A stretch of 47,469 nt of DNA from a virus (taxonomy: Duplodnaviria; Heunggongvirae; Uroviricota; Caudoviricetes), in the IMG/VR virus record IMGVR_UViG_2877274432_000010; one strand, 5' to 3'. A program made the position numbers and the translations under genes. The notes under the pieces were generated by a model that worked only from the letters and a program-made list of their open reading frames with translations, had not been told where the DNA came from and searched no databases. Positions 21,069-23,111 of this stretch are shown here, piece after piece. Numbering within the stretch: the stretch's first letter is position 1; the number at the start of each line of letters is the position of its first letter.

Positions 21069-22337
21069 ATGTCTGTAGTGATATCAGGTGCGCTGACTGA
21101 TGGCGCAGGTATCCCCATGTCCGGATACCATATTATTCTGAAATCCCGGGTAAACCCCCCGGAAGTGGTGATGAACACTGTTGCTGATGTGATGACAGGA
21201 AACGATGGTGAATACTGTTTCCATGCGCGGACTGGAAAATATGGTGTGTATCTGAAACAGGACTGGCGCAACGAGTACAACGTTGGCGACATTGCTGTAT
21301 ATGAGGACTCAAAGCCCGGCACGCTGAATGACTTTCTGATTGCTCCTGATGAGGGCGACCTGAAACCGGATGTCGTCAAACGCTTTGAGGAAATGGTGGC
21401 GCAGGCGCAGCAGAGCGCCGGGGCCGCAGCCGGAAACGCACAGCAGACGGCGCAGGATGTGGCGGCAGCCGCAGGTTATGCCCGCGCAGCAGAGCAGGCC
21501 AAAAATGACATTGATGCTGCGCTGACCGGCACTCTGAAAACGGCTAACCATCTGTCTGAAATCGCAGCAGCAGGCGAAAAGGCACAACAGAAGTCCCGGG
21601 ATAATCTGGGGCTGAAAAGTGCGGCCACGATGGAAGCACAGAGCGACATTTACGACCGGACAAAAGGCCGTCTGGCGATACCCGGCGCATTCGGCTTTGG
21701 GTGTGCTTTTCTGCCTGAAGATGTTATCCGTTTTGACACTAAGAGTGATTTCCTGGCCTGGGTAAGGAATGCGCTGCCAGGTGAATATTCCGTTGCTGGC
21801 CCCTACGGCATCATCATACCCGACACACGGTTTGAAGGGGTGCTCAGCATCCGGTGGACTGATGCACGCCCTGAGACAACAGAACCGCGGTACAGAGCCA
21901 AATCCCTTACTTTTTACGGCATTAACGGCCCCATTTATCACACCCGCTACCGCTACTGGCCCATATCCAGACTGACTGACTGGGTGAAAATAAATATAAC
22001 CACAGAAGATATTATTTACAGAATCGTGGCGAGCTCTGTCCGCAACAGATGGGGAGACCCTGACATTGGCGGGCTGATTATTGCTGCGTACCAGGGAGAA
22101 GCTGACGGTGATAAAGTCATCAGACTTGTCAGGGGGCAGTCATACAGAGGCTCACGACTGGGACCGGTGGGGATTTCAGTGCCCAGTACTCCCACCGGAA
22201 CGTATATAGCATCCCCACAATTTTTCATTACGGGATGTTCAGAGCATTCATTACCGGGGTCATATTGCGCCCTGTCCGGGGTGCCGGATGCTCATGTCTC
22301 TGGCGCAATGCCCGGGCTTTTTATTCGCACATCGTGA
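21069..22337 (+). CDS. Prophage tail fibre protein, 422 aa
   Basis: MSVVISGALTDGAG... with Ala/Gln-rich repeat region; followed by a tfa gene; last ~55 codons are duplicated at 41115-41282. Confidence 0.65.
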   Translation: MSVVISGALTDGAGIPMSGYHIILKSRVNPPEVVMNTVADVMTGNDGEYCFHARTGKYGVYLKQDWRNEYNVGDIAVYEDSKPGTLNDFLIAPDEGDLKPDVVKRFEEMVAQAQQSAGAAAGNAQQTAQDVAAAAGYARAAEQAKNDIDAALTGTLKTANHLSEIAAAGEKAQQKSRDNLGLKSAATMEAQSDIYDRTKGRLAIPGAFGFGCAFLPEDVIRFDTKSDFLAWVRNALPGEYSVAGPYGIIIPDTRFEGVLSIRWTDARPETTEPRYRAKSLTFYGINGPIYHTRYRYWPISRLTDWVKINITTEDIIYRIVASSVRNRWGDPDIGGLIIAAYQGEADGDKVIRLVRGQSYRGSRLGPVGISVPSTPTGTYIASPQFFITGCSEHSLPGSYCALSGVPDAHVSGAMPGLFIRTS

Positions 22338-22347
22338 GGAATGCACC

Positions 22348-22911
22348 GTGGAAATTAAAAAAATCATTAATCCCCGTTATACCGAAAGTGGCGCAGTAGA
22401 CTGTGACGTTTTTTTTGACGACAGGGACCAGGCAGTCCCCTACACAGCCACCGCTGATGATGTCGCTCCGACGGGTCAGCAAATCTGGCAGGAACTGCAA
22501 AGCGGCAAATGGGGTGAGATAGCCCCATTCACTGTGACACCAGAAATGCTGGAAGCGGCCAGAGAGGCCAGACGTCAGGAAATTGAAGCATGGCGCGCAG
22601 AACAGGAGGCGAAGCTGTTCACGTTTGAATGGAACGGTCGTATCTGGAATGCTGGTCCCGACTCACTGGGCCGCCTGTCCCCGGTAGTCATGCTGGCAAA
22701 ATCTGTCACAGCACAAACACATATGGCGTGGAGCGATGCCGATAATCAGCAGGTGAAACTGTCGATGCCGGAACTGGAAGAACTGGCGGCAGCAATGGTG
22801 CAGGCGCAGGTCGATCGCAACGATGAGATTTATCGCCGTCAGCGGGAGCTGAAGGAAGAGCTGAATAGTCTGAAGGATTTGAATTCGGTTAGGAATTTTA
22901 TCGTGGAATAA
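22348..22911 (+). CDS. Tail fibre assembly protein (GTG start)
   Basis: [15 protein letters not shown]...; TGAGGA RBS upstream of GTG 22348; a divergent copy lies at 41293-41856. Confidence 0.6.
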   Translation: MEIKKIINPRYTESGAVDCDVFFDDRDQAVPYTATADDVAPTGQQIWQELQSGKWGEIAPFTVTPEMLEAAREARRQEIEAWRAEQEAKLFTFEWNGRIWNAGPDSLGRLSPVVMLAKSVTAQTHMAWSDADNQQVKLSMPELEELAAAMVQAQVDRNDEIYRRQRELKEELNSLKDLNSVRNFIVE

Positions 22912-23111
22912 CAGAAGCTGCGGCACGTCGTATGCAGGAACGTGCCGCGGTTGGCTGGTAAACTTTCGATAGTGCGAGTATTGAATGATTTCTAGGCGTT
23001 ATCGATTTTACGTATTTTTTGCATGATAGAATTCGTACCTCCTCCCAACGACCTTCCATGGCTTTCCGGACTTCTGTAGGCTGGCGGACGATGCTGTCCT
23101 CGGATGTTGTG

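Follow-up and report, generated by a model that had tools for sequence, protein, structure and literature searches.

Two direct repeats in the window, the whole 47,469-nt stretch of DNA analysed here, are best interpreted (with a probability of roughly 85%) as the right-hand ends of two decayed Shigella flexneri prophages that share a horizontally exchanged module consisting of a tail-fibre tip and a DUF4376 gene, the edges of the repeats being an insertion sequence (IS) breakpoint and a mosaic junction. Under this interpretation, copy A would comprise an L54-like fragment, a tfa gene, a fibre gene and the DUF4376 gene, with the P27-type gene end and hairpin retained, followed by a sitABCD moron. 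Copy B would be the end of a P27-like prophage that carries ipaH3 and is inserted at pphA/yebW. An IS-associated deletion would have taken away all sequence left of the final 168 fibre nucleotides, and the left repeat edge at 41115 would have been set by that deletion rather than by a biological cassette boundary. Past 22845/41790, each lineage would carry DNA that arrived with its cargo, in the ipaH lineage in the order diverged gene end, Mu-U-like tfa scrap, ipaH, CssrB and hairpin, and the differing C-termini would mark the attached cargo block instead of alternative host-range determinants. We infer the direction and timing of the module recombination events. A prophage mosaic of this kind is ordinary and already known.

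Compared without gaps at a shift of 18,945 bp, positions 22170–22844 (copy A) and 41115–41789 (copy B) are identical at 671 of 675 nt in direct orientation, with mismatches at 22614, 22616, 22618 and 22662. Such an identity (99.4% over 675 nt) cannot be attained by chance in 47 kb. The homology has a sharp left edge (22169/41114). From 22845 to the common stop codon (22909–22911 and 41854–41856), the copies are identical at 45 of 67 nt (67%), and past the stop codon of the DUF4376 gene they are unrelated. Between the two proteins, 8 of the 21 C-terminal residues differ, in addition to one upstream change, KLF versus KPL. The initial annotation had described two direct copies, 19 kb apart, of a fibre 3′ end and a downstream gene with different C-termini. 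The comparison agrees with this description, and the C-terminal peptides quoted there were correct; the pairwise alignment upheld the similarity, but shortened the near-identical part from the claimed ~0.74 kb (742 nt) to 675 nt. Both copies are also found in many complete S. flexneri chromosomes in the same arrangement, and an assembly artefact was therefore ruled out; positions 31233–47469 of the window are 100% identical to S. flexneri CP012735.1.

Copy A belongs to a P27-like fibre module on the plus strand. The module begins with the 3′ fragment of a first tail-fibre gene resembling phiP27 L54 (20109–20477; PHROG tail-fibre families), which is truncated at the left by a partial IS3-family copy (19176–20125). 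A classical tail-fibre assembly gene resembling phiP27 L55 follows (20674–21045; Caudo_TAP, PF02413, 3e-23, profile positions 23–131; phrog_136, tail fiber assembly protein) and is apparently broken, with a 50-aa ORF at 20501–20653 preceding this 123-aa ORF. Positions 20220–21011 share 93% identity with the fibre/tfa region of a P27-like prophage in enteroinvasive E. coli (EIEC) VL40. The second tail-fibre gene, of 422 aa and similar to phiP27 L56, occupies 21069–22337 and carries a Pfam PF08400 phage_tail_N domain (1e-70). When this fibre was compared with P27 L56 and two EIEC VL40 fibres, the N-termini were diverged and the distal parts about 99% identical; the N-terminal domain is specific to the backbone, and the distal ~290 aa form the exchangeable tip.

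The repeat itself consists in copy A (22170–22844) of 168 nt of the fibre 3′ end, 7 nt of spacer and the initial 500 nt of the DUF4376 gene, and continues into the A-type 3′ tail of that gene (22845–22911), whose left edge is the putative mosaic junction. A conserved hairpin just past the DUF4376 stop codon (22916–22952, plus strand; −30.6 kcal/mol, z = −3.3) is also present behind phiP27 L57 and, in copy B, downstream of ipaH, and the region around it (22909–22979) is 77–79% identical to 44022–44092 in copy B and 91% identical to phiP27. A consensus terminator scan of 22700–23200 returned no terminator, and the hairpin was not called one because it has no T-run. Downstream, the minus strand carries the sitDCBA iron/manganese ABC transporter operon (23112–26561; Pfam ABC-3, ABC_tran and ZnuA; names taken from PGAP on EIEC loci that are 98–99% identical) and a tyrosine-integrase fragment (26993–27646; PF00589), after which comes an IS1 at 27633–28403. 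The integrase fragment travels with sit, and the same fragment lies behind sitA in E. coli H22. In EIEC VL40, the sit-linked copy closes a lambdoid prophage (gene order J, lom, fibre, DUF4376, sitDCBA and uspF), and therefore the fibre-tip/DUF4376 module occupies different phage backbones.

Copy B (41115–41789, plus strand) is made up of a 168-nt fibre remnant, with neither fibre body nor start codon, and the 5′ 500 nt of the DUF4376 gene. The remnant is fused to a transposase fragment, namely part of the IS66-like accessory gene tnpA (40733–41113, plus strand; residues 1–117 of 190; NCBIfam NF038385, 178.9 bits, cut-off 150). The tail-fibre 3′ end that had been reported for both copies thus exists as sequence, but in copy B it amounts to this remnant. 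A BLAST comparison of this IS fragment with a pINV locus was negative, and its identity came from NCBIfam. The 20 nt upstream of copy B are identical in 20 S. flexneri loci, and similarity to the intact phiP27-like prophage of EIEC VL40 starts exactly at 41115. That prophage has the order baseplate, fibre, tfa, fibre, DUF4376, ipaH3 and then pphA/yebW; its right end is 99.5% identical to window positions 41115–44237, the tail of its ipaH3-linked copy is 100% identical to the copy B tail, and pphA/yebW/rsmF also flank copy B on the right in S. flexneri.

An internal scrap of a tfa gene of the Mu U / P2 G / P7 U′ type (41863–41966, plus strand; phrog_7784; weak Caudo_TAP match at 41856–42035) sits between the stop codons of the DUF4376 gene and ipaH and shares ~80% identity with the tfa genes of SfMu, Mu, P2 and P7. 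A DNA search of sequenced phages for the B-type tail recovered this adjacent Mu-U-like scrap only and did not find the tail itself. The ipaH gene (42036–43751, minus strand) encodes a 571-aa LRR and NEL E3 ligase protein (Pfam NEL, LRR_TTSS and LRR_4), and the EIEC locus 99.5% identical to it is named IpaH3/Hc by PGAP. It is followed by the CssrB small RNA (43880–44062, plus strand; Rfam RF02799, 151.6 bits, gathering score 76), the 3′ end of which is the copy B version of the conserved hairpin. With an LRR and NEL ipaH gene beside tail genes at a prophage end, the copy B locus qualifies as an ipaH island.

The repeated ORF, previously labelled tfa, matches Pfam PF14301 (DUF4376) in both copies (22345–22911, 57.9 bits; 41290–41856, 58.0 bits; both on the plus strand; cut-off 25). 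Neither 207-aa ORF matched Caudo_TAP (PF02413) in Pfam at E ≤ 0.01, and with PF14301 present in its place a classical Tfa identity (lambda Tfa / Mu U / P2 G) was dropped. The true start is probably the GTG at 22345/41290, which would yield a protein of 188 aa with the A-type tail ...ELKEELNSLKDLNSVRNFIVE in copy A and the B-type tail in copy B. This codon is preceded by GAGGAA, is aligned with the start of phiP27 L57 and lies 7 nt past the fibre stop codon at 22337, an equal layout being found in phiP27 and both EIEC prophages; the ATG at 22288 called by PGAP (207 aa) is a less likely start. The copy A protein is homologous to phiP27 L57. All 120 homologues listed (best of 1771) have PF14301, and the C-terminal 24 residues of these 120 show 39 distinct endings; wide variability of the tail region is ordinary among homologues.

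An AF2 model of the copy A protein reached a pLDDT of 83. A PDB sequence search with the protein gave no significant match, nor did Foldseek of the model against the PDB, where the best hits were weak and prefoldin-like (E about 0.4); a fold link to TfaMu or another solved chaperone, which found no PDB support in sequence or structure, was set aside. Experiments on Alteromonas phage V22 and Campylobacter CJIE1 have shown that DUF4376 proteins are required there as fibre chaperones (PMC7289586, PMC7882524). By analogy, the S. flexneri protein probably acts as a fibre chaperone. Because these relatives are required chaperones, tfa is a reasonable label for the function, but not for the family, which is PF14301; the Caudo_TAP gene sits upstream at 20674–21045.

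We compared segment identities across three lineages, copy A, copy B and phiP27. Over the core (nt 1–500 of the DUF4376 gene), A and B are 99% identical to each other and 77% identical to P27, whereas over the last 67 nt (the tail) the identities are 67% for A–B, 84% for A–P27 and 73% for B–P27. The genome of S. flexneri SFBU1023 contains seven copies of the module, of which the single sit-linked copy has the A tail and all ipaH-linked copies (6/6) have the B tail, each with the ipaH C-terminus at an equal offset and a 179-nt spacer. Tails are 100% identical inside each cargo class across genomes, and the A tail is found in the sit-linked S. flexneri copy, phiP27 and the sit-linked EIEC copy. 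The C-terminal type follows the cargo (sit or ipaH), not the fibre. Since the tail type tracks the cargo while the fibre tips are identical, position 22845/41790, 67 nt ahead of the stop, appears to be an old mosaic recombination junction and not a host-range switch. The suggestion of the initial annotation that the differing C-termini form a host-range variation cassette finds no support in these observations or in the missing fibre body of copy B.

Copies A and B have also exchanged shorter tracts. Haplotypes at the A locus are GTTC or ACCT, those at the B locus are ACCT, GTTC or GTTT, and EIEC has GCTC. Hybrid proteins were seen in different strains, KPL with the A tail at the sit locus and KLF with the B tail at the ipaH locus; the contigs that bear them number 37 and 39 and include several complete chromosomes. 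This shuffling of SNP haplotypes across loci, with all four gametes present for sites 22616 and 22662, indicates short-tract gene conversion between the copies. Mis-polishing of long-read assemblies could account for part of the shared alleles, as several CP18xxxx assemblies have fragmented genes, but the number of contigs with hybrid alleles and the complete chromosomes among them argue against this. The near-identity of the cores, which reaches 100% in VL40 across 486 kb, could be due to gene conversion having homogenised them instead of to a recent exchange of the module. Bidirectional conversion between prophage remnants is a small, concrete case of concerted evolution among Shigella ipaH/sit islands, and it calls for caution in short-read assembly and SNP calling at these copies.

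The block between the repeats contains sit, the integrase fragment and lambdoid early-left genes (recE, gam and kilR), as had been noted, and RecA-dependent unequal crossing-over at the repeats could delete or duplicate this ~19-kb block and make sit copy number variable. The mechanism proposed in the initial annotation is possible in that the repeat is direct, 675 nt long and 99.4–100% identical, and the copies demonstrably exchange sequence. In addition, the 9.2-kb draft contig L052 and three similar contigs join the left flank of copy B to the A tail and sit, which is the joint that a duplication or an excised circle would give. However, L052 is a short-read draft in which a tandem repeat of 1002 bp has no explanation, and the contig may have been misjoined at a perfect repeat. 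No deletion joint (A-left/B-right) was found in about 49 long S. flexneri contigs, including among those read for the B and KLF+B-tail alleles, and the IS66 flank lies upstream in 16 of the 16 distinct contexts shown and in all 20 copy B locus sequences checked (20/20). Longer, 100% identical direct copies of IS1 (18407, 27632 and 44237) and of an IS3-family element (19176, 33741 and 45717) flank the same block, and the single spacing variant seen, 9.7 kb in CP128220.1, retains both copies. We therefore regard variation of the block through the repeats as doubtful. It is unlikely that the seven S. flexneri modules form an actively recombining family in which A/B crossing-over occasionally duplicates, excises or deletes the 19-kb sit block and of which L052 is a trace; if they did, members of a population would differ in sit dosage and in whether ipaH is linked to an intact fibre.

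It is very improbable that a recent segmental duplication within the S. flexneri chromosome, rather than descent from two separate prophages, produced the pair of copies. The core identity of 99.4–100% would fit such an event, as would the T that both S. flexneri copies have at 22292, where EIEC and other ipaH-linked copies have A, but gene conversion explains the common T better. Orthologues with the same tails and cargo occupy two EIEC VL40 loci that are 486 kb apart in different backbones, and tails that are 67% identical are far too diverged for a recent duplication.

Finally, a programmed host-range system, in which fibre/chaperone cassettes are switched by inversion (Mu G, P1 C or e14 P) or diversified by a diversity-generating retroelement (DGR), can be practically dismissed, even though fibre/chaperone segments are classic substrates of such systems and a reverse transcriptase ORF (29352–30875) lies between the copies: the copies are direct rather than inverted, none of the genes called up to 10 kb from either copy matches a resolvase/invertase Pfam family, the identical fibre 3′ ends and the lack of a fibre body in copy B mean that nothing receptor-binding would change, the reverse transcriptase is a group II intron protein (GIIM domain; Rfam Intron_gpII match at 29262–29348), and the A/B tail mismatches involve all bases instead of being adenine-specific.

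The relevance of the two-prophage reading lies mostly in annotation: the "tfa" ORF is a DUF4376 chaperone-type gene, and its C-terminal variants would serve as cargo markers (sit or ipaH). In Salmonella, the sopE cassette is an effector moron that passes from one phage family to another when tail-fibre genes recombine. As in sopE-type morons, the cargo here stands right behind fibre/assembly genes, the junctions lie inside these genes or at their end, and relic tfa fragments are nearby; the effector and the phage families are different, which makes this an analogy only. The invertible segments of Mu (G), P1/P7 (C) and e14 (P) similarly have a fibre 3′ end and an assembly gene in two versions, and a Mu-U-type scrap adjoins copy B, but the segments here are direct, have no invertase, have identical fibre ends and lie 19 kb apart in separate prophage remnants.

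V22 gp27 and the CJIE1 gene downstream of the H-fibre share with the present gene the DUF4376 domain, a position directly 3′ of a fibre gene and a similar size (PMC7289586, PMC10579305, PMC7882524), whereas relatedness in sequence is confined to the Pfam domain. The sitABCD genes are a common moron of lambda-like coliphages, reported on 70% of those from the infant gut (PMC6969025). There, as here, sit lies directly 3′ of side-tail-fibre/chaperone genes at the prophage right end, while in the window sit follows a module with a P27-like (myovirus-type) fibre setting in a defective prophage. The ipaH islands have been described, with conservation reported across S. flexneri isolates (PMC4226921); our literature search on ipaH together with tail-fibre prophage remnants found no report. 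Like the Shigella/EIEC ipaH islands, which are P27-like with ipaH beside attR, copy B has a VL40 counterpart at the same chromosomal site, and one S. flexneri genome has six such modules, but of the fibre gene copy B keeps no more than the final 168 nt, fused to the IS66-like TnpA fragment. With respect to phiP27 itself, the fibre tip and chaperone core are about 77% identical, no sit or ipaH follows L57, and the copies in the window, unlike phiP27, are prophage remnants interrupted by IS elements. Nevertheless, phiP27 L54–L57 (NC_003356) presents the same series of a fibre, a Caudo_TAP tfa, a second fibre with a PF08400 N-terminus, a DUF4376 gene, the hairpin and attR, with 84% identity to copy A in the gene tail and 91% in the hairpin.

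Compared at a fixed offset of 18,945 bp, the two copies of the repeat, here called copy A (22170–22844, sit-linked) and copy B (41115–41789, ipaH-linked), agreed at 671 of 675 positions, with mismatches at 22614, 22616, 22618, and 22662. Homology stopped sharply on the left at 22169/41114; to the right of the core, identity dropped to 45/67 (67%) as far as a common stop codon (22909–22911 and 41854–41856), past which the sequences were unrelated. The encoded proteins differed at 8 of the last 21 residues and at one place upstream, reading KLF in copy A and KPL in copy B. The initial annotation had described two copies with differing C-termini, and this was confirmed, as were both peptides it quoted; the repeat is real and was correctly described in outline, although its near-identical core spans 675 nt, not 742 nt.

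Copy A comprised the final 168 nt of a tail-fibre gene encoding 422 aa (21069–22337; Pfam phage_tail_N, 1e-70), a 7-nt gap, and an ORF of the DUF4376 family (PF14301, 57.9 bits against a cut-off of 25). This ORF likely starts at the GTG at 22345, yielding 188 aa; that codon lines up with the start of L57 in phiP27 and is preceded by GAGGAA. The ORF is the homologue of L57, and the module is arranged as in phiP27, where the order is L54 fibre, L55 tfa, L56 fibre, L57, and attR. It had earlier been labelled tfa, but a Pfam search gave no Caudo_TAP match and DUF4376 instead, placing the protein outside the Tfa/Caudo_TAP family; the classical Tfa of the module is a separate upstream gene (20674–21045; Caudo_TAP, 3e-23). 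As a functional label based on family membership, tail-fibre chaperone is still reasonable, since gp27 of Alteromonas phage V22, a DUF4376 protein encoded downstream of the fibre gene, is a required chaperone, and the H-fibre of Campylobacter CJIE1 needs a DUF4376 chaperone encoded downstream (PMC7289586, PMC10579305, PMC7882524). The AlphaFold model (pLDDT 83) was mixed alpha/beta, with the variable tail predicted to lie on a long helix (141–174) and a short terminal helix (179–187); sequence and fold searches returned no significant relative in the PDB.

The window is Shigella flexneri chromosome, with 31233–47469 showing 100% identity to CP012735.1 and 99.9% to several more complete genomes. 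Copy A was followed by a conserved hairpin (22916–22952), sitDCBA on the minus strand (23112–26561), an integrase fragment, and IS1, past which lay the lambdoid early-left genes gam, recE, and kilR, broken up by IS elements and a group II intron. Copy B was flanked on the left by an IS66-like TnpA fragment (residues 1–117 of 190; NCBIfam, 178.9 bits) and on the right by a 100-nt scrap of a Mu-U/P2-G-type tfa and a convergent ipaH encoding NEL and LRR domains (42036–43751). Between ipaH and the next IS1 lay the sRNA CssrB (43880–44062, plus strand; Rfam RF02799, 151.6 bits) and the copy-B version of the hairpin (44022–44092, 79% identical to 22909–22979). Because the 3′ end of CssrB is the same hairpin that directly follows the DUF4376 stop in copy A and phiP27, this sRNA seems to have formed on the former end of the fibre operon.

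We consider it highly probable (about 85%) that the repeat is a fibre-tip/DUF4376 module common to two defective prophages that carry different cargo. In the enteroinvasive E. coli (EIEC) strain VL40, an intact phiP27-like prophage ends in fibre, tfa, fibre, DUF4376, and ipaH3, followed by pphA/yebW. Its ipaH3 end matched window 41115–44237 at 99.5% identity, and the match began exactly at 41115; the pphA/yebW/rsmF flank is likewise present in S. flexneri. Copy B is therefore the truncated end of this prophage, and an IS-associated deletion set the breakpoint that forms the left edge of the repeat. The sit-linked copy of VL40 forms the end of a lambdoid prophage, where the gene order is J, lom, fibre, DUF4376, sitDCBA, and uspF; other EIEC strains carry it in a P27-like context, as in the window. 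In VL40 the two modules sit at uspF/ompN (sit-linked) and pphA/yebW (ipaH3-linked), 486 kb apart, versus 17–19 kb in S. flexneri (window 20000–44300), which implies that two prophage remnants were brought together by a large IS-era rearrangement.

At the other end of the module, segment identities changed sharply at 22845. Over the 500 nt of the DUF4376 gene before this point, A–B identity was 99% and each copy matched phiP27 at 77%; the A–B, A–phiP27, and B–phiP27 values were 67%, 84%, and 73% over the last 67 nt, and 77%, 91%, and 79% over the hairpin region. These two versions of the last 67 nt, the A tail and the B tail, followed the cargo. Among seven module copies in S. flexneri SFBU1023, the one sit-linked copy had the A tail and all six ipaH-linked copies had the B tail, ending in …SIRAFDVE or …SIRAFDVK, with the ipaH C-terminus at an equal offset behind a 179-nt spacer. 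Within each cargo class, tails were 100% identical across genomes (A with VL40-sit, B with VL40-ipaH3), and fibre tips were identical in both classes. The last 24 residues showed 39 distinct variants among 120 listed homologues (best of 1771). From these observations, 22845 is a mosaic junction of the ordinary kind, placed where the last structural gene ends and with a variable moron region beyond; the module thus has an IS breakpoint at one edge and a mosaic junction at the other. The suggestion that the tails form a host-range cassette was not borne out: the differing C-termini mark which cargo block is present and do not determine host range.

The repeats had also been proposed to mediate deletion of the block between them. 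The usual left side of copy B stood in each of the 16 distinct contexts shown for B and KLF+B-tail alleles, the 20 copy-B-locus sequences checked all shared one 20-nt stretch of IS66 flank upstream, and no joint of fibre A to a B-tailed gene and ipaH was found among these contexts. The same block is flanked by longer, perfectly identical direct IS1 and IS3-family copies. The sole spacing variant seen, in the S. flexneri genome CP128220.1 (9.7 kb between A and B versus 16.7–18.9 kb elsewhere), kept both copies and reflects an IS-associated loss of DNA from within the block between them. The copies do exchange sequence, however. Exact look-up found both hybrid proteins, KPL+A-tail on 39 contigs at the sit locus and KLF+B-tail on 37 at the ipaH locus; some of these assemblies look error-prone, but the hybrids recur in many independent genomes. 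Haplotypes at 22614/22616/22618/22662 were GTTC or ACCT at the A locus, ACCT, GTTC, or GTTT at the B locus, and GCTC in EIEC, so that all four gametes were present at 22616 and 22662. Together, these data indicate short-tract gene conversion in both directions.

One 9.2-kb draft contig (UDPS01000130.1) and three similar ones joined the left flank of copy B to the A tail and sit; positions 1–8394 of the former covered window 38466–41652, 40651–41826, and 22170–26911. Such a joint would be expected of a duplication or excised circle, the reciprocal product of recombination between the repeats; as the contig also holds an unexplained extra 1002-bp tandem repeat of 40651–41652, it may instead be a mis-join across a perfect repeat. 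A perfect 62-nt direct repeat also occurs at 15987–16048 and 40589–40650, 24.6 kb apart; its second copy directly precedes the IS66-like TnpA fragment, and it is straight after this copy that the sequence restarts at the odd tandem junction of the draft contig.

Several other explanations were rejected: recent intrachromosomal duplication, as EIEC carries orthologues of both copies at separate loci, with tails and cargo to match; an invertible host-range switch, given the direct orientation, the lack of any invertase family among genes called within 10 kb of either copy, and the identical fibre ends; and a diversity-generating retroelement, as the reverse transcriptase encoded between the copies is that of a group II intron and the mismatches were not adenine-specific. 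An assembly artefact was dismissed because many complete genomes share the arrangement.

The group II intron (29271–31531, minus strand; RT/maturase ORF 29352–30875; Rfam Intron_gpII 29262–29348) lies inside an IS3-family element and, of the S. flexneri loci fetched, was present in CP044155.1 only. The window also has a 646-bp perfect tandem duplication (16591–17236 and 17237–17882) that other S. flexneri genomes lack; their alignments overlap there by 646 bp. The region 13209–15920 carried four clustered tRNA genes (Met, Arg-tct, Thr-tgt, and Gly-tcc) and then a 534-aa integrase, with three 121-nt tandem repeats (15251–15613) and AT-rich iteron-like repeats (15785–15920) after it. A P1/P7-type C4 antisense RNA/isrK immunity region occurs twice, in opposite orientations, at 10940–11141 (plus) and 39270–39458 (minus), the latter within the Rha/Ash genes that lie upstream of copy B. 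The left prophage remnant has a sok antitoxin RNA (CssrC; 7819–7993, plus strand; Rfam RF01794, 118 bits), which points to a hok/sok locus there.

The structure is of a known kind in a well-studied genome, and only the strict tail–cargo association and the bidirectional gene conversion are mildly new. Among lambda-like coliphages, sitABCD is well documented as a moron (PMC6969025), and S. flexneri is known to have conserved ipaH islands (PMC4226921). In a four-fibre alignment, the N-terminal (virion-attachment) domains diverged while the distal parts were ~99% identical, which is the familiar pattern of an exchangeable fibre-tip/chaperone unit set in different phage backbones.
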